NCBI GenBank assembly: GCA_029977845.1
Contig: JAPOKC010000002.1
Coordinates: 996 to 64,995, forward strand
Direction of reading: 5' to 3'
Origin: Mycobacteriaceae bacterium
GTDB lineage: Bacteria; Actinomycetota; Actinomycetes; Mycobacteriales; Mycobacteriaceae
Length of the DNA: 64,000 bases
Both the position numbers and the translations under genes were made by a program. The notes under the pieces are model-generated. The model was not told the origin of the DNA. It made no database searches and was given only the letters and a program-made list of their open reading frames with translations. Every line of letters begins with the position of its first letter. The stretch's first letter is position 1. Of the stretch, positions 5,090 to 37,005 are shown piece by piece.

Positions 5090-5104
5090 GAGAATGTTAT
5101 TCTC
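5090..5104. promoter_or_regulatory. Palindromic operator GAGAAT-N3-ATTCTC (perfect copy)
   Basis: GAGAATGTTATTCTC about 23 bp upstream of the amidohydrolase start; motif recurs at many intergenic regions. Confidence 0.75.
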
Positions 5105-13269: not shown

Positions 13270-13464
13270 TCACTCCTCGATCGTGATCGCTAGTGCGGGG
13301 CACGCGGCTGCGGCGGCCCGGACCCGGGCCTCCTGATCGTCCGGTGGCTCGTCGGTCAGCAGGACGACGACGCCGTCCTCGTCGCGCTGGTCGAACACCG
13401 CCGCGGCATTGCGGACGCACTGCCCGGAGGAGACGCAGGCGGCCTGATCGACGACGACTTTCAT
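13270..13464 (-). CDS. [3Fe-4S]-type ferredoxin (CxxSxxC...CP)
   Basis: MKVVVDQAACVSSGQC...ACPALAI; ATG at 13464 overlaps the TetR stop. Confidence 0.9.
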   Translation of the reverse strand: MKVVVDQAACVSSGQCVRNAAAVFDQRDEDGVVVLLTDEPPDDQEARVRAAAAACPALAITIEE

Positions 13465-14126
13465 ATCCCGTCCACCTCCTCGGTGACCGGCGCCAACCAC
13501 AGCCCGATGATCGCGTCGATCAGACCCGACGATGCCGAACCCCAGGTCAGGTTCGGCGAGCGCGTGCGGTCGGCGATGGCACGCTCGTAATGGGCGCAGG
13601 TGTGGATCAGCAGGTTGCGGCCCATGACGTTGCGCTCGGCCCGGACGCGGGTCGGCAGATCTGGCAGACACCGGCTGATGCCCTCGAGAACCGTGACCAG
13701 GGCCGGCAGGGCCAAAGCCCCGGAAGTGATGGTCTGGTAGTAGGCCGGATCGGCCATGACCTGAGCGGCGAAACGGGCGTACCAGGTCGGATTGCCCAGC
13801 GCGGTCAGGTGATCGGTCAACGGAAGGACCAGGGCGCCGACCCAGTCCCGCAACTCCTCCGAATCCCCCATCTCGGCCAGTCGTTGTGCGCGCAGTCGCT
13901 CCACCGGGACGGCGTGCTTGTGCTCGATGGCCCGGACGAGGTCGGTCTTGGTTCCGAAGTGGTACCCGACGGCGGCGTTGTTGCCCTGCCCGGCGGCCTC
14001 GCTGACCTGACGGTTGGACACCGCGTAGACACCGTGTTCGGCGAACAGTCGCTCAGCGGCCGCGAGGATCGCCTCGCGGGTGAGACTGGCCCGGTCGGCC
14101 CGGGTGCCGGTGGTCGCAGCGGTCAT
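13461..14126 (-). CDS. TetR family transcriptional regulator
   Basis: TREAILAAAERLFAEHG...RQVSEAAGQGNNAAVGYHFGTKTDL HTH. Confidence 0.92.
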   Translation of the reverse strand: MTAATTGTRADRASLTREAILAAAERLFAEHGVYAVSNRQVSEAAGQGNNAAVGYHFGTKTDLVRAIEHKHAVPVERLRAQRLAEMGDSEELRDWVGALVLPLTDHLTALGNPTWYARFAAQVMADPAYYQTITSGALALPALVTVLEGISRCLPDLPTRVRAERNVMGRNLLIHTCAHYERAIADRTRSPNLTWGSASSGLIDAIIGLWLAPVTEEVDGI

Positions 14127-14154
14127 CAAGGCCAGTCAACCCCCGACCATTCTT

Positions 14155-27799: not shown

Positions 27800-29428
27800 A
27801 TGCCCGGCGCGAATCCACCGAGTTGGGATATCGAGGTCGACGTCGTCGTGCTCGGCACCGGCGGGGCCGGACTGACCGCGGCATTGTCGGCGGCGGCGCA
27901 CGGGGCCTCGGTGGCGGTGTTCGAGAAGTCGGCGACCGTCGGCGGCACGACCGCCGTGTCCGGCGGCATCCTCTGGATCCCGTCCCATCACCGCTCGGCC
28001 GATGTCGACCTGCCCGTCGAGGACGCGATGGCCTATCTGCGGGCCCAGTCCCTCGGCGCGATGGCCGAGGATCTGGTGGAGACCTTCGTTCGCACCGGTG
28101 AGCCGATGATCGACTTCGTCGAACGCAACAGCGAGGTGCGGTTCGAGATCGCCCCCGGCTACATGGACTACAAGCCCGAACTCCCCGGCGGCCGGACCGT
28201 CGGCGGACGGTCACTGAGCGCGGTGCCCTACGAGGTGACCCGACTCGGCGACTGGGCGGCGAGGATCACCACGTTCCCCGCCGACTGGAGCAACGTCGGC
28301 TTCGATGCCGAGACCCGCGCCCGGCTCAACGCCGACGTCGACGACCGGGGCGGTCAGATCGTGGTGGCCGGAGCCGCCCTGATCGCCGGGCTGCTCAAAG
28401 CTTTGCTCGACCTCGGCATCGAACCCGTCCTGGGCGCACGCGCGCTGGAGCTGGTCTGCGACGGCGACGCGGTGACCGGGGTGCGCATCGAGGCGGGAGG
28501 TAAGCCGGTCGCGGTACGCGCCCGCCGTGGTGTCATCCTGGGCACCGGCGGGTTCGAATGGGACGAGTCGCTCGTCGGAGCGTTCCTGCGCGGACCGATG
28601 CACGGCGCGGTCTCCCCGCCGAACAACACCGGCGACGGTCTGCGGATGGCGATGGCGGTGGGCGCCGATCTGGCCAACATGGGTGAGGCCTGGTGGGTGC
28701 CGATCGTCCGGATCCCCGGCGACACCATCGAGGGGCATCCGCGCAGCCGCAGCGTCCGCCTCGAACGCACCCGCCCGCGCAGCATCATCGTCAACCGGGC
28801 CGGCAAGCGGTTCGTCAACGAAGCGTGCGACTACAACTCGATGGCCGGCGCCTTCCACTACCTGGATCCCCGCTGCGGATACGTCAACGATCCGGCCTGG
28901 ATGGTGTTCGACTCGCTGCACCTCAAGCACTACGGGTTCCTCGGCGTCGAACCGGACGCTCCGGTGCCGGACTGGTTCTGCGAGTCCGCCGACGTCGACG
29001 AACTGAGCGAGAAGACCGGGATCGACGCGGCCGGTCTGGCCGAAACGCTGCACCGGTGGAACGCGAACGTCGCCCAAGAGGTCGATCCCGACTTCGGTCG
29101 CGGATCGAGCGCCTATGACGGGTATTGGGGTGACGAGAATGCGGCGACGACCGCCGGGAAGACACTCGGCCCGGTCGACACCGCACCGTTCTACGCGGTT
29201 CCCATCTCGGTCGGGTCGATGGGCACCAAAGGCGGACCACGCACCGACCGGGACGGCCGGGTTCTGCACGTCAGCGGACGGCATGTTCAAGGTCTGTACG
29301 CCGCGGGCAACGCGATGGCGGGCGTGACGGGTCGCGCCTACGGCGGCGCCGGCGGAACCATCGGGCCGGCAATGGTGTTCGGTTTCCGTTCAGGCCGCCA
29401 CGCGGCCGGCGGAGACACCGACGACTAG
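27800..29428 (+). CDS. Second KstD-like FAD-dependent oxidoreductase
   Basis: LGTGGAG, GGTTAVSGGILW, YMDYKPE, EACDYNSM, GLYAAGN, RAYGGAGGTIGP. Confidence 0.85.
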   Translation: MPGANPPSWDIEVDVVVLGTGGAGLTAALSAAAHGASVAVFEKSATVGGTTAVSGGILWIPSHHRSADVDLPVEDAMAYLRAQSLGAMAEDLVETFVRTGEPMIDFVERNSEVRFEIAPGYMDYKPELPGGRTVGGRSLSAVPYEVTRLGDWAARITTFPADWSNVGFDAETRARLNADVDDRGGQIVVAGAALIAGLLKALLDLGIEPVLGARALELVCDGDAVTGVRIEAGGKPVAVRARRGVILGTGGFEWDESLVGAFLRGPMHGAVSPPNNTGDGLRMAMAVGADLANMGEAWWVPIVRIPGDTIEGHPRSRSVRLERTRPRSIIVNRAGKRFVNEACDYNSMAGAFHYLDPRCGYVNDPAWMVFDSLHLKHYGFLGVEPDAPVPDWFCESADVDELSEKTGIDAAGLAETLHRWNANVAQEVDPDFGRGSSAYDGYWGDENAATTAGKTLGPVDTAPFYAVPISVGSMGTKGGPRTDRDGRVLHVSGRHVQGLYAAGNAMAGVTGRAYGGAGGTIGPAMVFGFRSGRHAAGGDTDD

Positions 29429-30396
29429 ACGTCGATGACGACCTTGCCGATCGCCTTGCGGTCGGCGACATAGCGGATCGCCGCAGCCGCCTCGGTCAAC
29501 GGGAATCGCGCACCGATATAGGGCCGCAGCTTCCCTTCGGAGAGAAGACTCCGCAATTCGGCGTCATCGCGCGCCATCTCCTCGGGGTGGTCGATCATGA
29601 ACGTCCGGATCTCCATGCCCTGCACGGTGATTCCCTTGAGTAGCACCAGATTAAGCGGGATCGCCGGGATCGTTCCCGACGCGTAGCCGAGGGTGACAAA
29701 CCTTCCCCCACGGCCGAGTCCGCGCAATGCCTGCTCCGAATACGGTCCGCCGACCGGGTCGACGACGACCTGGGCCCCGGTCTCCCCGGTGATCTCCTTG
29801 AGCCGGGTGCGCAGATCCTCGCGGTCGTAGTCGATGCATTCGGTCGCTCCGCGCTGTCGGCACACCTGAAGCTTGTCCGCGCCGGAGGCCGCCGCGATAA
29901 CCCGGGCGCCGAAGAGCACGCCGATGTCCACCGCGGCCAGACCCACCCCACCCGCGGCGCCGAGCACCACCACCCAGTCACCGGCTTTCACCGGCGCCAC
30001 GGTGCGCAGTGTGTAGTAGGCGGTGCGGTTGGTGACGCCGAAGGCCGCAGCATCGGCATAGTCGACACCGTCGGGGATCCTGGTGACGGCGCGGGCATCG
30101 ATGGCCACCTGTTCGGCGAAGGCGCCGACGAAACTCGTTGCCGAAACACGTTCGCCGGCAACGAAATCGACGCCCTCACCGACGGCGAGCACATCCCCGG
30201 CGAGTTCACTGCCCGGGCTGAACGGGGGTGGCAGCTTGATCTGGTACTTGCCGGCGATCATCAGGAAGTCGGGATAGTTCACCGCGGCGGCACGTACCTT
30301 GATCACCACCTGTCCTGGGCCCGGTGTCGGATCAGGCAACTCCTCAAGAACGAGATCCTCGGGAAGGCCGTATTCACGGCAGACGATCGCGCGCAT
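29425..30396 (-). CDS. NADPH:quinone oxidoreductase family (Zn-free MDR; possible enone reductase)
   Basis: MRAIVCREYG, AAVNYPD, GAAGGVG, GKVVI; start 30396 overlaps the TetR stop. Confidence 0.9.
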   Translation of the reverse strand: MRAIVCREYGLPEDLVLEELPDPTPGPGQVVIKVRAAAVNYPDFLMIAGKYQIKLPPPFSPGSELAGDVLAVGEGVDFVAGERVSATSFVGAFAEQVAIDARAVTRIPDGVDYADAAAFGVTNRTAYYTLRTVAPVKAGDWVVVLGAAGGVGLAAVDIGVLFGARVIAAASGADKLQVCRQRGATECIDYDREDLRTRLKEITGETGAQVVVDPVGGPYSEQALRGLGRGGRFVTLGYASGTIPAIPLNLVLLKGITVQGMEIRTFMIDHPEEMARDDAELRSLLSEGKLRPYIGARFPLTEAAAAIRYVADRKAIGKVVIDV

Positions 30397-31031
30397 CAGT
30401 CGTTCCTCACGTCGGGGCTCACAGACACTCCCAGACCACCCAGGCAGAACCGAACCAGATGATCGATATCCCTGCGACCCGGCTGATCGCCGGACCCGAC
30501 ATATCGTCGCATCGCGCCGACCGTGCACCCGAAGACCGCCTCGGCATCGCGGGCGGGATCGGGACGGCCCAGTGCCTGCAACGGTTGCACGAGCAGATCA
30601 CGCATGGTGGCCATGATCTCCTCCTCGGCGAGCCGGCCCCTGTCGGATTCCGACATCTGGCCGACCAGGGTGCGGCTGGTCCCGACCAGTTTCGGATCGG
30701 CCACCTGAGCGAGCGCTCCCCTGATCCACCGGGCGACCTTGTCCTCGGGGGTCTTCTCCTTGGCCATCTGGTGCTCGAGATACGAGACAACCAATGCGAC
30801 ACCGCGTTCCATCACCGCCAGCATCAGATCGTCCTTGCCGGCGAAGTAGCGGTAGAAGGCCTTATTGGAGACCTTGGCCTCGGCGATGATGTCGCTGACT
30901 CTCGGCGCCTCCGGCGCCACCCGCTGCATCTCCCGGACCGCTGCGGCCAGAATCCGCTCGACGTCATCGGCGGCGTCGCGCCGGCGCTCGTCGAGGGCAC
31001 GGACGACCGCGGCGGCGGCGCGACTGGTCAC
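30396..31031 (-). CDS. TetR family transcriptional regulator
   Basis: RILAAA...RVSDIIAEAKVSNKAFYRYFAGKDDL HTH. Confidence 0.9.
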   Translation of the reverse strand: MTSRAAAAVVRALDERRRDAADDVERILAAAVREMQRVAPEAPRVSDIIAEAKVSNKAFYRYFAGKDDLMLAVMERGVALVVSYLEHQMAKEKTPEDKVARWIRGALAQVADPKLVGTSRTLVGQMSESDRGRLAEEEIMATMRDLLVQPLQALGRPDPARDAEAVFGCTVGAMRRYVGSGDQPGRRDIDHLVRFCLGGLGVSVSPDVRND

Positions 31032-32335
31032 GGCGTGACGGGAAGCGCCGGGATCCGGTCCACCAGATGCCCGTACTTCTCCCGCACCCGTTCGATCCGG
31101 CTCTCCATGAACTCACTGGGCCACATCGGGTCCTCGGGTTCGTAATTCTTGAGCACCATGCGGGCCAGATTGACCTTGTGCGCCTCGGTGGGTCCGTCGG
31201 CCAGTCCGAGTGCGATCCCGCCGAACAGCACGTTGACCAACGGCATCTGATCGGTCAATCCGAGTCCGCCGTGGGTCTGGATGGCCCGAAGTCCGATCGC
31301 CTTGAGCAGATTGGCCGTCGCGATCTTGCAGGCCGCGATCTCCTCCCGCGCGGCATGCTCACCCTGGGTGTCGCACAGCCAGGCCGCGTGCAGGACCATC
31401 AGCCGGAACTGGGTCAGTTCGACGTAGGAGTCGGCGACGAATTCCTGGATGAGCTGTTTGTCGGCCAGCACACTGCCCTGGGTGAAACGGCTCTTCGCCC
31501 GTCGCGCCATCATGTCGATGGCGCGCTGGGCGACTCCGATGGAGCGCATCGCGTGATGCAGCCGGCCGCCGGAGAGCCGGGTCTGCGCAACACCGAACCC
31601 GCCGCCCTCCGGTCCGAGGATCGCCGATCCCGGCACCCGGACGTTGTCGTAGCGGACCAGCGAATGGCCGGGCTCGTGCGGTCGGGAACCGACCAGATGG
31701 TGGGTGGCCTCGACGATCACCCCCGGGGTGTTCTTCGGAACAAGGAAGGTCGATGCACCCTTGTGCACCGCGACGTCGGGGTTGGTGATCGCCACGACGA
31801 TGAAGAACGATGCGACCGCGGCATTCGACGACCAGTACTTGCGGCCGTTGATGATCCAGTCGTCACCATCGCGGGTGGCGCGGGTGGTGAACACCTTGGG
31901 ATCCGATCCGCCCTGCGGTTCGGTCATCGAGAAGGTGGAGAAGATCTCCCCCGACAGCAGCCCGGCGAGATAGGTGTCCTTCTGCTCCTGGGTGCCGTAC
32001 TTGGCGATGATCTCCGCGTTGCCGGTGTCGGGGGCCTGGGTGCCGAAGATGATCGAGGACCAGGTGGCCCGGCCGAGGATCTCGTTGATCAGGGTCAGCT
32101 TGACCGCGCCGAATCCCTGCCCGCCGAGTTCCGGTCCGAGGTGCGGCGCCCACAGGCCCTGGTCGCGCACCCGCTGCTTGAGCGGGTCGACGATCCTGCG
32201 CCGCTGCGCGTCGAGTGGCAGGAATTCGCACCCGGGGAAGAGCACCTCGAGCGGTTCGACCTCTTCGCGGACGAACTCTCGGATCCACTCCAGCTTCTTC
32301 TCGAACTCCGGCTCGGTGGAGAAGTCCCATGCCAT
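31028..32335 (-). CDS. Acyl-CoA dehydrogenase (ACAD10/11, LvaC-like)
   Basis: QAPDTGNAE, FSMTEPQGGSDP, AQTRLSGGRLHHAMR, LADGPTEAHK. Confidence 0.9.
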   Translation of the reverse strand: MAWDFSTEPEFEKKLEWIREFVREEVEPLEVLFPGCEFLPLDAQRRRIVDPLKQRVRDQGLWAPHLGPELGGQGFGAVKLTLINEILGRATWSSIIFGTQAPDTGNAEIIAKYGTQEQKDTYLAGLLSGEIFSTFSMTEPQGGSDPKVFTTRATRDGDDWIINGRKYWSSNAAVASFFIVVAITNPDVAVHKGASTFLVPKNTPGVIVEATHHLVGSRPHEPGHSLVRYDNVRVPGSAILGPEGGGFGVAQTRLSGGRLHHAMRSIGVAQRAIDMMARRAKSRFTQGSVLADKQLIQEFVADSYVELTQFRLMVLHAAWLCDTQGEHAAREEIAACKIATANLLKAIGLRAIQTHGGLGLTDQMPLVNVLFGGIALGLADGPTEAHKVNLARMVLKNYEPEDPMWPSEFMESRIERVREKYGHLVDRIPALPVTP

Positions 32336-32351
32336 GTCGTGCTCCTGCCTG

Positions 32352-33110
32352 TCAGGGAATGCCGCCGTCGGCCCGAAGGATCGAGCCGGTGGTGAAACTG
32401 GACGCGTCGGACATCAAGAACAAGGCGGCGCCGATGATCTCGGCAGGCTCGCCGGCCCGCTTGAGCGCGTGGCGGCCGAAAGGGTTCTCGACGCTGAAGT
32501 CCCACGCCTTGCTGATATCGGTGAGGAAGGGTCCGGGCATCAGCGTGTTGACGCGAACACTCGGACCGAATGCCAGTGCCAGACCTTCGGTCATCGCGTT
32601 GAGCCCGGCCTTGGACGCCGCATAGGGGATGAAGGACGGATGCGGCCGCAGCGATCCGTGCGTGCTGACGTTGATGATCGCCCCGCCGCCGTCGGTAACC
32701 ATCCGTTCCCCGACGAGGGCCGAGAGCCGGAATGGCCCCTTGAGATTGAGGTTGATCACCGCGTCGAACAACTTCTCGTTGACGTTCGTCAGCTTGTCGT
32801 AGGTCGGCGACATTCCGGCGTTGTTGACCAGGACGTCGAGCTTTCCGAACCGTTCGTACACGGCGTCGACAAGTCCGTCGAGTTCATCCCAGCGTCCGAC
32901 ATGGACTCCGTACGGCATTGCGGTGCGGCCGGTTTCGGCCTCGATCTCCGCTGCGGTCACCACACAGGTGTCGTACTTCCGGCTGGCGATGATCACATCC
33001 GCGCCGCAGCGCGCTGCTCCGAATGCCATCTCGCGGCCGAGCCCGCGACTGCCCCCGGTGATCAGCACGACCTTGCCGGTCAGATCGAAAAGATCGTCGG
33101 CGTAACCCAT
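32352..33110 (-). CDS. SDR family oxidoreductase
   Basis: TGGSRGLG, NNAG, YAASK. Confidence 0.92.
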   Translation of the reverse strand: MGYADDLFDLTGKVVLITGGSRGLGREMAFGAARCGADVIIASRKYDTCVVTAAEIEAETGRTAMPYGVHVGRWDELDGLVDAVYERFGKLDVLVNNAGMSPTYDKLTNVNEKLFDAVINLNLKGPFRLSALVGERMVTDGGGAIINVSTHGSLRPHPSFIPYAASKAGLNAMTEGLALAFGPSVRVNTLMPGPFLTDISKAWDFSVENPFGRHALKRAGEPAEIIGAALFLMSDASSFTTGSILRADGGIP

Positions 33111-33111
33111 C

Positions 33112-34155
33112 TCAGGCCTCCGGTCCGGATTGGGCCAACCGGGCGGCGGTGCTGATCAGATCCGGCGCCATGTTGCCGAATGCCTCTTTGATCCTCGGGT
33201 CGGCCTTGGGGTTGTTGACCGCGCCGGCGTAGGTCTTCTCCAACACGATGCCGAGTTTCCAGTTCGCCAGCACCAGGTAGTAGTGGATGTTCTCGGTCGA
33301 GATTCCGGTCAGCTTCTCGTAGTGAGCGAGCAACTCGCTGCGGGTGGGCATCCCCTCCATCGGAAGGTAGAAGCCCTGGGTCTTGGGTTCCTCGCCCTCA
33401 TAGCCCAGCAGCGCCCACGCGACGTCGAGCAACGGGTCGCCGATCGTGGTCATCTCCCAGTCGACGATGGCGGCAAGTCGGGCCGGCGCCCCGTGCGCGT
33501 ACATGACGTTGGCGAACTGATAGTCGCCGTGCATGATCCCCGGCGTGAAGTGTGCCGGCCGGTTGGCGCGCAGCCAGTCCGAGGCCACGTCGAGACCGTC
33601 CAACTCCCGGACCTTGAAGGTCGCCAGGAATGACAGCCAGCGATCCACCTGGCGGTCGTGAAAGCCGTCCGGCTTGCCGAACCCCTCGAGTCCCTGGGCC
33701 TTCCAGTCCAAGCGGCCGAGTTTGGCGGCACCCTCGATGAGCTGGAAGGCCAGACCGCGGCGTGCTTCCAGATCCGTGTCGAACGGTGCAGCCCAGCCAC
33801 CGTCCATAGGACTCCAGCCGTCGATCTCCTTCATCAGGTAGAACGGCTTACCCAGGACGGCGCCGCTCTCATCGGCGGCGACCAGTTCGGCGTGCGGCAC
33901 GTCGGTGCCCCGCAGCGCCCGCTCCAGACGGATCTCCCGGAGCAGTTCGCTCAGGCGTTTCTCGTCGGCGCGCGGCCCGGGCATCCGCAGCACCATCTTC
34001 TGACCGCCCCGCTCGACGCGGTACAGCATGTTCTGCGATCCGCCCTTGAGCACCTCGGCGACCGGTTCCTCACCGTGGCCGGGGGCCTCCTGGGTGTCGA
34101 GCCAGCGGCCCAGCGCCGCGGTGTCCAGGCCTGCGGGTTCTTCTGTTCTCGCCAT
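33112..34155 (-). CDS. APH-like phosphotransferase (ACAD10/11 kinase domain, LvaA-like)
   Basis: GGSQN, VLRMP, HGDYQFANV, IVDWEMTTIGDPLLD. Confidence 0.88.
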   Translation of the reverse strand: MARTEEPAGLDTAALGRWLDTQEAPGHGEEPVAEVLKGGSQNMLYRVERGGQKMVLRMPGPRADEKRLSELLREIRLERALRGTDVPHAELVAADESGAVLGKPFYLMKEIDGWSPMDGGWAAPFDTDLEARRGLAFQLIEGAAKLGRLDWKAQGLEGFGKPDGFHDRQVDRWLSFLATFKVRELDGLDVASDWLRANRPAHFTPGIMHGDYQFANVMYAHGAPARLAAIVDWEMTTIGDPLLDVAWALLGYEGEEPKTQGFYLPMEGMPTRSELLAHYEKLTGISTENIHYYLVLANWKLGIVLEKTYAGAVNNPKADPRIKEAFGNMAPDLISTAARLAQSGPEA

Positions 34156-34178
34156 GGGAACTCCTTAGTCTCCACCGG

Positions 34179-34193
34179 GAGAATAGCATTCTC
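34179..34193. promoter_or_regulatory. Palindromic operator GAGAAT-N3-ATTCTC (perfect copy)
   Basis: GAGAATAGCATTCTC about 24 bp upstream of the phosphotransferase start. Confidence 0.75.
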
Positions 34194-34203
34194 CGCAGCT
34201 CGG

Positions 34204-35742
34204 CTAAAGGGTTCCTTCCGCAACGCCCATCCGGACCAGATACTTCTGCACCTTGCCGCTCGGGGTGCGCGGATAGTCCTCCACCTGATGCAGTTCCTCG
34301 GGCCACTTCTGCCGCGCCGCCCCGGCCGCCTCGAAGTGTGCGCGCACCTGATCCAGGTTCGGCATCTGCTGCCCCTCGCGCATCCGCAACACCGCGGCCA
34401 CGCGTTCACCGAGCCGGGCGTCCGGAGCAGCGACCACGACTGCTTCGGCGACCCCCGGCACGGCGAGCAGAAGTTCCTCGACTTCGAGTGCGCTGACGTT
34501 CTCACCGCCGCGGATGATGACGTCGGCTTTACGGTCGGTGATGGTCAGATAGCCCTCGGAGTCGATCACACCGATATCGCCGGTGTGGTACCAGCCGTCG
34601 GCGTCGAAGGCCCGTTCGGTGAGTGCGTCATCGGTGTACCCGAGACACAGATCCGGTCCGCGGGAAAGGATTTCGCCATCCTCGGTCAGCCGGATCTCCA
34701 CACCCGGACGGGGATTCCCATCGGTGAACAGTCGCTTGTCCTCCGGCGCAGACAGCTGGGAACCGGTGACGGACGGATGCTCGGTGCTGCCGTAGGACCG
34801 GAAGACGACGATGCCGAGATCCGCCAGCCGGCGGGTCACTGCGGCCGGCACCGCCGACCCGCCGAGGCCGACGGTGGTGATCCGGCTCAGGTGCGACTCG
34901 GAGAAGTTCGGATGGTCGAGCAGACTGGTCACGAAGTAGGGCGGCCCACCCCCGATCGACATCCCCTCGCGATCCATGAGGTCAAGGACCAGGCCGGGAT
35001 CCCAGACATCGCAGAGGTCGATCGGTGATCCCTCCAGCACCGGGATCAGGAAGGCGCTGAGCATGCCGATGAAGTGCCCCACCGGGGTGGCGGTGATCTG
35101 ATGGCCGCGATCCGGTGCATAGTTCGCCAGCAGCTGGTGGGTTTCGAACCCGAGCGTCTGATGGCTGTGCACGACTCCCTTGGGGTCGCGAGTGGTTCCG
35201 GAGGTGAAGGCGATGACCGCCGGACCGGCCGGGTCGGTCCGCACCAGGCCCGGCATCGGCTCATCGGCGAGGAGGTCGTCGAAATCGCTTCCCACCAGTC
35301 CGACGACGGGGATGTCCTCGCACAGGTCCGGGTGATGGTCCATATGCCGGAACTGCTTGGTGGTGATGAGGACGGCGGGCTTGCAGGTGCCCAGAATGTG
35401 GCCCAGCTCCTTGCGGCCGTAGAAATGCACGACCGGCACCACCACCGCTCCGAGTAAGGCCGCGGCCCAGAAGGTCGCCGCCGCCTCGGCCCAGTTGGGC
35501 AGTTGCATGACCACGACGTCGCCCGGGCCGACACCCCGTTCGCACAGACCCGCGGCCAGCCGGCGTGCCAGGTGCTCGACATCGGCGAAGGTGCCGTCGA
35601 ACGGCCGGACATCGGAGAAGACCCGGAACCCGGTGTCCGGGTTGGCGGCCAGACCACGGGCGACGAGGTCACCGAGGGTGTCCTCGGTCCACCAGCCCTC
35701 GCTCTCGTAGCGGCGGCTCAGTTCTGCGGGGATCGGGCGCAT
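34204..35742 (-). CDS. Acyl-CoA ligase (cyclohexanecarboxylate-CoA ligase-like)
   Basis: FTSGTTRDPKG, SYGSTEHP, WYHTGD, QKWPE, RTPSGKVQK; start re-chosen at ATG 35742. Confidence 0.88.
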   Translation of the reverse strand: MRPIPAELSRRYESEGWWTEDTLGDLVARGLAANPDTGFRVFSDVRPFDGTFADVEHLARRLAAGLCERGVGPGDVVVMQLPNWAEAAATFWAAALLGAVVVPVVHFYGRKELGHILGTCKPAVLITTKQFRHMDHHPDLCEDIPVVGLVGSDFDDLLADEPMPGLVRTDPAGPAVIAFTSGTTRDPKGVVHSHQTLGFETHQLLANYAPDRGHQITATPVGHFIGMLSAFLIPVLEGSPIDLCDVWDPGLVLDLMDREGMSIGGGPPYFVTSLLDHPNFSESHLSRITTVGLGGSAVPAAVTRRLADLGIVVFRSYGSTEHPSVTGSQLSAPEDKRLFTDGNPRPGVEIRLTEDGEILSRGPDLCLGYTDDALTERAFDADGWYHTGDIGVIDSEGYLTITDRKADVIIRGGENVSALEVEELLLAVPGVAEAVVVAAPDARLGERVAAVLRMREGQQMPNLDQVRAHFEAAGAARQKWPEELHQVEDYPRTPSGKVQKYLVRMGVAEGTL

Positions 35743-35745
35743 CGT

Positions 35746-35795
35746 GGCGATGCTATTCTCCATCAGCGAGAATGCCAATATCGGAAATGGAGAAC
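35746..35795. promoter_or_regulatory. Array of three operator copies at 22 bp pitch in a divergent promoter
   Basis: GGCGATGCTATTCTC (35746), GAGAATGCCAATATC (35768), half-site GAGAAC (35790). Confidence 0.65.
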
Positions 35796-35801
35796 GGCCT
35801 C

Positions 35802-36518
35802 ATGGTGGACCTGGAGCGCAGTGGCGGCCTGGCCGTCATCACCATCGACCGGCCCCACGCCCGCAACGCCATCGCGATGTCGACGATGGGCGAACTCGAG
35901 GAGGCCCTCGACGCCGCGGCGGGCGCTCAGGCACTGGTCATCCGTGGCGGCGGCGATCGCGCCTTCGTCTCCGGCGGAGATCTCAAGGAGTTGGCCGCAC
36001 TGCGCACCATCGAGGAGGCCTCGGGGATGGCCCGGCGGATGAGGACCGTCTGCGACAGGATCGCGGACTTTCCGGCGCCGGTGGTGGCCGCGCTCAACGG
36101 TCACGCCCTGGGCGGAGGTGCCGAAGTCGCGGTGGCCGCCGATATCCGGATCGCCGCCGACGACATCAAGATCGGGTTCAATCAGGTCTCACTGGAGATC
36201 ATGCCGGCCTGGGGCGGGGCCGAACGGCTCGGCGCGCTGGTCGGCCGGGGCCGGGCACTGATGCTCGCCGGTTCCGGTACCATCCTCGGGGCCGCCGACG
36301 CGCAACGACTGGGGCTGATCGACCGGGTGGTCCCCCGCGCCGCGTTCGACGAGGAGTGGCGAGCGCTGGCGGAGGCCTTGGCGAACCGCCCGGCAGGGCG
36401 AATCAAGCAGGTGCTCGCCGGCGCGACCCCCGACCAGGCGGTGGCAGCCTTCGCCGATCTCTGGGTCTCCGATGAGCACTGGCAGGCCGCCGACCGGGTG
36501 ATGAACAAAGGTAAGTAG
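35802..36518 (+). CDS. Enoyl-CoA hydratase/isomerase family protein
   Basis: ITIDRPHARNA, AFVSGGDLK, LNGHALGGGAEVA, MPAWGG. Confidence 0.9.
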   Translation: MVDLERSGGLAVITIDRPHARNAIAMSTMGELEEALDAAAGAQALVIRGGGDRAFVSGGDLKELAALRTIEEASGMARRMRTVCDRIADFPAPVVAALNGHALGGGAEVAVAADIRIAADDIKIGFNQVSLEIMPAWGGAERLGALVGRGRALMLAGSGTILGAADAQRLGLIDRVVPRAAFDEEWRALAEALANRPAGRIKQVLAGATPDQAVAAFADLWVSDEHWQAADRVMNKGK

Positions 36519-36579
36519 AACCGTGGCGAACATCCCCCAAACCGTGGTTTCGACAGCAGGCGGCGTGCAAAACTGGCTC

Positions 36580-37005
36580 ATGGACTTCGTCCGGATGACA
36601 TCTGCGTTCGCCCTGGCTGTGAGCGCGACGACCCTCGCCACGGCAGTCGGCGCGGTGCCCGCTCATGCCGAAGGCCCGGTGATGCATCAGGTCACCTACA
36701 GCGTGTTCACCGAACGTCCGTTCAAGGCCGACATCTACTACCGGGACGCCGAACCCGCCATCTGGTCGGACTACAGCCACAACCCGTATCAGTTCAGTCC
36801 CAAGATCGAGGTTCAGGTCGGCCCCGACAACCCGTGGGTGCTCAATGTGCAACTCGCCAATCCCAACGAATGGGCGATGGTGATCGGCACCAGCGGACTG
36901 TCCCCCAATCCGCCGTACTTTCATTGCGTGCTGGCCATCGACGGGGTCGTGGTCAAGACGAACGGCGGCACCAAAGGCGCACTGTGCTCCGTGCGCATGT
37001 GGTGA
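36580..37005 (+). CDS. Secreted hypothetical protein with MmpS-like C-terminal Cys pair
   Basis: Signal peptide ending PAHA-EG; HCVLAIDGVVV...ALC resembles the MmpS Ig-like domain; start uncertain (36523-36595). Confidence 0.65.
   Translation: MDFVRMTSAFALAVSATTLATAVGAVPAHAEGPVMHQVTYSVFTERPFKADIYYRDAEPAIWSDYSHNPYQFSPKIEVQVGPDNPWVLNVQLANPNEWAMVIGTSGLSPNPPYFHCVLAIDGVVVKTNGGTKGALCSVRMW

Follow-up and report, generated by a model that had tools for sequence, protein, structure and literature searches.

Gene organization of the locus

We examined a 64,000-nucleotide stretch (hereafter the window; G+C ~66%) on contig C76 of a Mycobacterium metagenome-assembled genome (MAG; G000, 2.79 Mb in 152 contigs, 73% complete), and within it a run of genes for an acyl-CoA ligase, an aminoglycoside phosphotransferase (APH)-fold kinase, a short-chain dehydrogenase/reductase (SDR) and an acyl-CoA dehydrogenase (ACAD)-fold enzyme. 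An initial annotation had read these four co-directional open reading frames (ORFs) as one module for 4-oxo- and 4-hydroxyacyl fragments, akin to the Pseudomonas lva operon and to eukaryotic ACAD10. All four indeed lie on the minus strand, where the order of transcription is ligase, kinase, SDR, ACAD, a TetR-type regulator and a medium-chain dehydrogenase/reductase (MDR) of the quinone-oxidoreductase (QOR)/PIG3 type (Table 1). Ligase and kinase are separated by 48 nt, kinase and SDR by 1 nt, and SDR and ACAD by 16 nt, while ACAD and TetR overlap at a GTGA and TetR and MDR at a TGATG, the last five genes (kinase to MDR) being tightly packed. These gaps and overlaps leave no space for a small LvaB-like ORF, in line with the initial annotation, which had seen none. 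Its boundaries for the unit did not hold: the coupled genes run on into TetR and MDR, and the ligase lies outside the conserved unit. The ligase is counted from a TTG in Table 1; its true start may be an ATG at 35763 or 35742.

Table 1. Genes and operator-like sites on contig C76 (window coordinates, except for the last row).
Feature	Position	Strand	Description
Acyl-CoA ligase	34204-35778	-	Pfam AMP-binding and AMP-binding_C; 524 aa counted from TTG
APH-fold kinase	33112-34155	-	Pfam APH 1e-31; 347 aa; LvaA / ACAD10-11 type; predicted 4-hydroxyacyl-CoA 4-kinase
Classical SDR	32352-33110	-	Pfam adh_short 9e-48; 252 aa; NADP(H) type; predicted 4-oxoacyl-CoA reductase (LvaD-like step)
ACAD-fold enzyme	31028-32335	-	Pfam: all three ACAD domains (N, M and C); 435 aa; LvaC/ACAD11 type; predicted to eliminate phosphate from 4-phosphoacyl-CoA
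Cassette TetR	30396-31031	-	Pfam TetR_N; 211 aa
MDR, quinone-oxidoreductase / PIG3 type (QOR)	29425-30396	-	Pfam ADH_zinc_N and ADH_N; 323 aa, counted from the ATG of the TGATG overlap; predicted to be an NADPH ene-reductase
Cassette block (operator, kinase, SDR, ACAD, TetR, QOR)	29428-34195	-	82.4% blastn identity with the cassette at locus L001 across 4772 nt
KstD-like gene	27800-29428		convergent with the cassette
Island TetR	13461-14129	-	Pfam TetR_N; 222 aa
Perfect 7-3-7 palindrome GGAGAATGCTATTCTCC	34178-34194	.	in the 48-nt ligase-kinase gap, 22 nt upstream of the kinase ATG
Operator-like site GATATTGGCATTCTC	35768-35782	.	2 mismatches; ligase 5' end; followed by a partial second copy, GGAGAATAGCAT
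Perfect operator copy GAGAATGTTATTCTC	5090-5104	.	start of the oxygenase-ligase unit
Operator copies with 2 mismatches	39451, 52184, 52351, 57930, 58054
Further GAGAAT-N3-ATTCTC sites	78185, 86737, 92282		coordinates of contig C76 (G000)

A five-gene cassette is conserved across mycobacteria

Scanning one genome per species gave at least 560 kinase relatives; we examined the genomic context of the 80 best matches, which share 72-91% identity and come almost all from Mycobacterium. At least 69 of these 80 loci had kinase, SDR, ACAD, TetR and QOR in this same order, and most of the others were cut by a contig end. Taken gene by gene, an SDR was present in 77 of the 80 loci, an ACAD, in the same operon and two genes from the kinase, in 73, and a QOR after the TetR gene in 70; three of the loci without a linked ACAD were truly ACAD-less, and a few were cut by contig ends. 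The ligase stood beside the kinase in none of the 80. The conserved unit is thus a 4.77-kb cassette made up of a 17-bp palindrome and five genes. These loci indicate that a fixed five-gene set that includes its own regulator and an ene-reductase is carried by many mycobacteria, clinical slow growers among them. By the sequence comparisons given below, the cassette corresponds in actinobacteria to LvaA/LvaD/LvaC and to the two domains, kinase and ACAD, of eukaryotic ACAD10/11.

The cassette usually has proXVWZ-type transporter genes, a FadE36-like second APH gene and a histidine phosphatase gene to one side of it and genes for an alkyl sulfatase and a sensor kinase to the other, a neighbourhood that presumably resembles M. 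tuberculosis Rv3756c-Rv3764c. A family III CoA-transferase gene is divergent from the kinase in fast-growing relatives. At L036:5261-7099 and in most slow-grower loci, the FadE36-like APH kinase and histidine phosphatase genes lie beside the cassette in divergent orientation.

The kinase resembles LvaA and the kinase domains of ACAD10/11

The closest matches to the kinase sequence in the PDB were 9o56 (7e-34), 3dxp (3.5e-33) and the ACAD11 kinase domain (1.8e-24). Its AlphaFold (AF2) model (pLDDT 94.6) matched 3dxp best (TM score 0.81), followed by the 25-hydroxysteroid kinase and Rv3168 (TM 0.70). Aminoglycoside, macrolide and choline kinases reached only TM 0.5-0.65; by sequence, such kinases matched at about 1e-3 (capreomycin phosphotransferase, a true antibiotic kinase, at 9e-4), and the NCBIfam APH(3') model scored 30 bits against a cut-off of 205. 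Because true aminoglycoside and choline kinases match only weakly by both sequence and fold, the window kinase does not group with them, a point that the initial annotation had left to be checked.

The kinase motifs quoted in the initial annotation were both found, as HGDYQFAN (209-216) and DWE (232-234). Equivalents of ACAD11 D220/N225, DWE, R86 and R176 are kept as D211/N216, DWE, R73 and R168; R86 and R176 are the CoA-contacting arginines in the ACAD11 model (PMC12440821). The motifs VLRMP and LLREIR supply in addition a beta-3 Arg (R57) paired with an alpha-C Glu (E74). The catalytic residues, DWE, R73 and R168 were invariant in the 80 orthologues and in 49 diverse representatives of the family, the latter also keeping H209, D211, N216, D232, E234, R57 and E74 without exception. 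Within HGDYQ, the Gln two residues after the catalytic Asp was invariant in the 80 orthologues, at a position that varies in the wider family, and the alkylglycerol-kinase motif HYDxK is absent from the window kinase and its 80 orthologues. On these residues and matches, we predict that the enzyme is of the LvaA / ACAD10-11 type and acts as a 4-hydroxyacyl-CoA 4-kinase.

A 76%-identical kinase with the same active-site motifs was found at L016:6944-8020 (also at L020 and L075) with no ACAD, TetR or operator beside it. It is flanked by SDR genes, a WS/DGAT wax-ester/triacylglycerol synthase gene and an acyltransferase gene, close to homologues of window genes 59200 and 5128, and may represent a lipid-alcohol kinase use of the same protein.

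The ACAD-fold enzyme keeps the phosphate pocket of ACAD11

The closest PDB matches to the ACAD were 4hr3 from M. abscessus (4e-74) and ACAD11 from human (2wbi, 1.4e-64) and mouse (8v3u, 6.5e-64); the best canonical ACAD was weaker than ACAD11 (1.7e-45), with the three-domain ACAD fold present in full. ACAD10/11 and LvaC differ from other ACADs in a catalytic Asp (D753) and in a helix whose R626, H634 and R637 ('HCMR') hold the 4-phosphate (Rashan et al., PMC12440821), and mutating R626/H634/R637/D753 of ACAD11 abolishes turnover of 4-phosphoacyl-CoA (PMC12440821). In a HMMER alignment to mouse ACAD11, TRLSGGRLHHAMR of the window ACAD (252-264) paired with GRLGPGRIHHCMR and kept the equivalents of R626, H634 and R637, and LADGPTEAH (378-386) paired with LADGPDEVH and kept the equivalent of D753 within DGPxExH, in place of the usual Glu. 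By this alignment all four ACAD11 signature residues are kept, and their equivalents were invariant across 70 mycobacterial ACAD orthologues. The ACAD motifs reported in the initial annotation fall partly within these segments (GGRLHH in the first, DGPTEAH in the second) and partly upstream (APDTGN, 101-106). The window ACAD is therefore predicted, from its sequence, to be an LvaC/ACAD11-type enzyme that eliminates phosphate from 4-phosphoacyl-CoA.

The SDR, the QOR-type reductase and the cassette TetR

The SDR carries the motifs TGGSRGLG, ASRK, NNAG and YAASK, of which the basic ASRK after strand 2 is typical of NADPH-preferring SDRs. The MDR belongs to the zinc-free enzymes of quinone-oxidoreductase / PIG3 type (TIGR02824, 231 bits, under the cut-off of 296.8). 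Its best PDB match was 4eye (5.7e-59), followed by quinone oxidoreductases, 2-haloacrylate reductase and the enoyl reductase domains of fatty acid and polyketide synthases, relatives that reduce C=C bonds. The QOR recurs with kinase-ACAD pairs in three settings, namely the cassette, a paralogous module on contig C65 and the Rhodococcus plasmid pDK3, and from this recurrence we infer that it saturates a 2,3 double bond. By analogy, such a step would match the double-bond reduction needed for 4-hydroxy-2-alkenoates.

The cassette TetR is a single-copy gene, with no paralogue at E<=1e-8 in G000, G011 or G002 (the latter two being genomes of relatives). It shows a weak similarity over nearly its full length, beyond the helix-turn-helix, to AvaR1 (1.7e-6) and to the ScbR-family model (1.2e-8, far under cut-off). 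This resemblance to gamma-butenolide/butyrolactone receptors hints, weakly, at a lactone-like ligand. Neither the cassette TetR nor the island's own TetR described below reached the KstR model, and identity with KstR was rejected for both.

The cassette was inserted beside a ligase that belongs to a catabolic island

Among NCBIfam models, the nearest to the ligase were medium-chain and cyclohexanecarboxylate ligases, all under cut-off, and a PDB search with it gave no match at E<=1e-50. Orthologues (59-78% identity) were found in 13 of 24 genomes of the same genus. The kinase adjoined none of 88 ligase-orthologue loci (8 extended genome loci and 80 metagenome loci); their neighbours were instead other genes of the island that surrounds the ligase in the window, namely a divergent P450, an amidohydrolase-type oxygenase with a second ligase and, in the closest relatives, the convergent KstD-like gene. 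Judged by these neighbours, the ligase resides in a large catabolic island with Mce and P450 genes and stands outside the cassette.

Comparison by blastn located the junctions. In the relative L095, only 130 bp separates the counterparts of window segments 27815-29388 and 34232-37005, and the block between them in the window matches the L001 cassette end to end (Table 1), which puts the breakpoints within 29389-29427 and 34196-34231. Alignment with these relatives shows a 4.77-kb cassette, bounded by the far side of the operator at one end and the stop codon of QOR at the other, inserted so that the stop codon of the island ligase lies on one side of it and that of the convergent KstD-like gene on the other. 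Membership of the ligase in the cassette is rejected on these breakpoints together with the counts of 0/80 kinase loci and 0/88 ligase loci. Of the module first proposed, the kinase, SDR and ACAD thus stand, by their closest structures and retained family residues, and the ligase does not, since it never adjoins the kinase in the other loci examined.

The QOR stop codon overlaps that of the KstD-like gene in a common CTAG, and the KstD-like protein ends in ...GDTDD where its orthologues end in ...GKPVDIPG, its last ~13 residues being different; the insertion rewrote the 3' end of this gene. No convincing insertion sequence elements, target duplications/direct repeats or terminators were seen at the junctions. 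The alkyl sulfatase and family III CoA-transferase genes that flank the standard site of the cassette, sought for an empty site that would mark translocation rather than duplication, were not found in the window's own MAG, which is 73% complete.

Island and cassette are both present but apart in G002, G011 and G022 (1.2 Mb apart in G011). In M. komossense, an isolate, the sole copy of the cassette lies inside the same island at a different place, between genes that are adjacent in the window (12004 | 12046), where the insertion site also has one extra DUF3298 gene. As this copy occupies another island site, the island has captured the cassette twice independently.

Cassette and island share an operator sequence

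The palindrome ahead of the kinase is probably an operator; it overlaps TATTCT, a -10-like hexamer, at which a promoter may be placed. The operator copies mentioned in the initial annotation correspond to this perfect palindrome and to the 2-mismatch copy at the ligase 5' end. Of ~77 cassette loci, most have the GAGAATGCTATTCTC core or a near-identical form upstream of the kinase, irrespective of the genes further out, and the three ACAD-less kinase loci L016, L020 and L075 lack it. Downstream of the palindrome (34156-34177, and in L001-L080), GGAGA(G/C/T) resembles a third half-site and also serves as the ribosome-binding site, and ATTCTCC-N4/5-GGAGAG forms a second, overlapping inverted repeat by the kinase start.

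We searched for the 15-bp palindrome GAGAAT-N3-ATTCTC. Allowing <=2 mismatches, the window has 8 sites where 0.7 would be expected, and every one is at the 5' end of a transcription unit (gene start or intergenic DNA). The whole MAG holds 7 sites with <=1 mismatch, and all 5 perfect ones are on the 130.6-kb contig C76 (4.7% of the assembly). The complete genome G011 has 13 sites, of which one is the cassette operator, 10 surround the island ligase within 115 kb and 2 lie elsewhere, and in the complete relative G024 there are 12, of which 10 lie inside a 146-kb island and 7 are perfect. A control pattern gave 0 matches in G000, G011 and G024. The cassette operator is the same in sequence as the one repeated at promoters across the Mce/P450 island, and to judge by this identity the cassette carries the island's control sequence wherever it is placed in the genome.

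Being single-copy and placed behind a perfect operator, the cassette TetR was a candidate master regulator of the island. Three genomes (G018, G024 and G009), however, have the island and its sites but neither the cassette kinase nor a homologue of the cassette TetR, and the cassette TetR was rejected as sole regulator of the island. Because G024 keeps its island sites without the cassette TetR, the motif is the island's operator. A second TetR gene within the island (13461-14129), unrelated to the cassette TetR beyond family level, is present in every island genome tested (G018, G024 and G009 included), in 11 of 12 cassette genomes sampled and in 5 of 5 slow growers, and its orthologues sit inside the site-rich region. 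This island TetR appears to be the best candidate to bind the shared operator; the cassette TetR may bind the same palindrome or something else.

A proposed route for 4-oxo- and 4-hydroxyacyl-CoA

As a whole, the locus is best explained by a self-contained, widespread Mycobacterium cassette for 4-oxo/4-hydroxyacyl-CoA that has been inserted into the island and shares the island's operator, and we put the probability of this explanation at about 0.68. An acid with a 4-oxo or 4-hydroxy group would be converted to its CoA thioester, in the MAG by the neighbouring island ligase and in fast-growing relatives by the divergent family III CoA-transferase. The QOR-type reductase could optionally saturate a 2,3 double bond with NADPH, and the NADPH-type SDR would reduce the 4-oxo group to 4-hydroxy. 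The kinase would then phosphorylate the 4-hydroxyl with ATP, recognising CoA via its two invariant arginines, and the ACAD-fold enzyme, with FAD, an Asp base and an Arg/His/Arg pocket on the phosphate, would eliminate phosphate to leave a 2-enoyl-CoA for beta-oxidation. The SDR, kinase and ACAD steps mirror LvaD/A/C and ACAD10/11. Since the operator sequence is common to both, the cassette would be switched together with the island and would handle gamma-oxo/gamma-hydroxy acyl intermediates or by-products of the island's lipid substrate. The initial annotation had named ring-opened terpenoid fragments as the substrate, which is a guess.

A functional link between cassette and island gains support from the shared operator and the two independent insertions. 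We tentatively extend it to a joint reading, possible rather than probable, in which the cassette is a normally distant regulon member of the ~115-146 kb island (Mce, P450 and oxygenase genes; 15-bp GAGAAT-N3-ATTCTC), breakdown of a cyclic/isoprenoid lipid by the island passes via gamma-oxo/gamma-hydroxy acyl-CoAs that are rescued by phosphorylation and elimination, and the captures in the MAG and M. komossense represent the regulon compacting into one cluster.

Several observations weigh against the explanation of the locus as a 4-oxo/4-hydroxyacyl-CoA cassette tied to the island. HCMR reads HAMR in the window ACAD, with the same Cys-to-Ala change in M. abscessus 4hr3. The likeness to the Lva enzymes is drawn from published descriptions and from ACAD11 residues, the sequences compared being ACAD10/11-type structures. 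Neither the Pseudomonas lva operon, as described, nor ACAD10/11 includes a QOR, so the role of that enzyme here is purely our inference. The ligase-kinase junction is known only from the window's 73%-complete MAG. Either of the two TetR proteins may be the one that binds the palindrome. Among the 24 same-genus genomes, 6 have both ligase and cassette, 7 only the ligase, 6 only the cassette and 5 neither, with no association between them; since inheritance of the cassette does not follow that of the island, it can be no more than an accessory branch of the pathway encoded there. To these is added the best PDB match of the kinase, which bears on the main rival.

On that rival reading, which we consider unlikely, the kinase would phosphorylate lipid alcohols (1-O-alkyl- or acylglycerol) and be activated by CoA thioesters, and the cassette would serve glycerolipid/ether-lipid salvage. 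A 2026 preprint (bioRxiv 10.1101/2025.09.10.675409) describes CoA-thioester-stimulated 1-O-alkylglycerol kinase activity for ACAD10 and several prokaryotic homologues (on chimyl alcohol), including that of C. thermarum, and finds the Lys of HYDxK essential for it. The structure matched best by the window kinase, 9o56, fits the C. thermarum enzyme of that preprint in its residue numbering (D214, K216, N219), and because this homologue is reported to phosphorylate 1-O-alkylglycerol the kinase family may be promiscuous; the ACAD-less kinases of L016, L020 and L075, next to WS/DGAT and acyltransferase genes, also speak for such a role. However, at least 69 of the 80 loci couple the cassette kinase with an SDR and with an ACAD that has the Asp base and phosphate pocket, the essential Lys is an invariant Gln in the kinase's clade, its CoA-contacting arginines are invariant, and the preprint leaves the relation between the two activities open (bioRxiv 10.1101/2025.09.10.675409). 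9o56 and the window kinase have in common the beta-3 Arg, alpha-C Glu, DWE and catalytic Asp/Asn, and differ in that the C. thermarum enzyme has HYDxK whereas the cassette clade has HGDYQ and is operon-coupled to an LvaC-type ACAD. The kinase could also phosphorylate the hydroxyl of a non-CoA steroid or isoprenoid for elimination, like the 25-hydroxysteroid kinase of Sterolibacterium, while ACAD and SDR act elsewhere in the pathway. Kinase-then-dehydration logic has been described for steroid breakdown (PMC8449060), the setting of the island is steroid/terpenoid-like, and 9ft5/9fsg was the second-best fold match (TM 0.70, E 3e-15; 1.6e-12 by sequence), but these matches are far weaker than those to ACAD11, 3dxp and 9o56 (1e-24 to 1e-34), and the invariant CoA-contacting arginines and the phosphate pocket of the partner ACAD argue for a phospho-acyl-CoA. 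We regard this reading as very unlikely.

Two further alternatives concern the ligase-kinase adjacency rather than the enzymes. A single ancestral operon of the lva kind (LvaE/A/D/C), in which all four genes serve the island's terpenoid fragments, is suggested by their common direction, by the lack of a terminator-like hairpin in the 48-nt ligase-kinase gap and by operator-like sites at both ligase and cassette; we regard it as very unlikely in view of a ligase that never adjoins the kinase (80 kinase, 8 ligase genome and 80 ligase metagenome loci), breakpoints that mark a discrete 4.77-kb insertion, and an operator of the cassette's own, promoter-proximal, between ligase and kinase. Equally improbable to us is a chimeric MAG assembly in which the adjacency has no biological meaning. 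The arrangement is unique among the loci examined and the MAG is 73% complete in 152 contigs, as a chimera would have it; yet a chimera needs two precise junctions within one island contig, both of which keep ORFs and stop codons intact, the only common repeat is 15-17 bp long, and the isolate M. komossense has an equivalent insertion at another island site.

Relation to known systems

To our knowledge, the phosphorylate-then-eliminate route for 4-hydroxy acids is established only in Pseudomonas levulinate catabolism, for one Burkholderia pair and for mammalian ACAD10/11. The enzymology proposed here is itself of a known kind. New are a fixed mycobacterial set of five genes, in which an ene-reductase and an in-operon TetR are added, and its wide spread in the genus, along with an operator that is also that of a large orphan Mce-linked island and the repeated physical capture of the cassette by that island; our literature search found no description of the five-gene cassette. 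The cassette offers a testable handle on how mycobacteria might dispose of gamma-oxo/gamma-hydroxy acids (lactones, levulinate, lipid-peroxidation products) and a natural test case for whether ACAD10-type kinases act on 4-hydroxyacyl-CoA, alkylglycerol or both, and the operator in common gives a way to define and induce the island.

In Pseudomonas putida, the lva operon comprises the LvaA kinase, LvaB, the ACAD-family LvaC, the SDR LvaD and the ligase LvaE (Rand et al. 2017, following the summaries given by PMC12440821 and PMC11342911). Both systems would take a 4-oxo acyl-CoA through an SDR, phosphorylation and elimination by an ACAD fold with an Asp base and HxMR pocket; the cassette differs in having no LvaB, no ligase as a conserved member, an extra QOR and in-operon TetR, another gene order, an actinobacterial host and an operator common to a large catabolic island. 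Compared with ACAD10/ACAD11 (8v3u, 8v3v, 2wbi), kinase (1.8e-24) and ACAD (6.5e-64) are homologous to both domains and keep the key residues, but they are separate polypeptides with the SDR gene between them, read HAMR in place of HCMR, lack a HAD domain and are under bacterial regulation. A split pair is also known from B. pseudomallei, in which Q63VL0/Q63VL1 replace the ACAD10 domains in vitro on 4-hydroxyhexanoyl-CoA (PMC11342911). Compared by description, the Burkholderia pseudomallei pair and the cassette both have a stand-alone kinase and ACAD; the SDR-TetR-QOR genes and the link to an island are, so far as described, the cassette's only. The 25-hydroxysteroid kinase of Sterolibacterium denitrificans (9fsg, 9ft5; PMC8449060) is likewise an APH-fold kinase that primes an unreactive alcohol for elimination in lipid catabolism, but its substrate is a free steroid rather than a CoA ester and its partner, a phosphosteroid lyase, is unrelated to ACADs.

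Related kinase-ACAD modules

The paralogous module in the same MAG (contig C65:160000-169726; L182) comprises a kinase of ~40% identity, an ACAD of 31%, an SDR, an aminotransferase, an enoyl-CoA hydratase and a QOR-like MDR, and its ACAD keeps R...THAMR and YDGPTEVH. This module was present in 8 of the 24 same-genus genomes and lay ~17 kb from the cassette in G011, G022 and G002, with no GAGAAT-N3-ATTCTC site at its kinase-ACAD-SDR genes in G011. A two-gene unit of kinase (56% identity) and ACAD was found on the megaplasmid pDK3 of Rhodococcus sp. DK180 (L193; 535596-537986), divergent from genes for an NADPH:quinone oxidoreductase and a LysR regulator, with an SDR, an aldehyde dehydrogenase and an AMP-binding ligase a few kb off.

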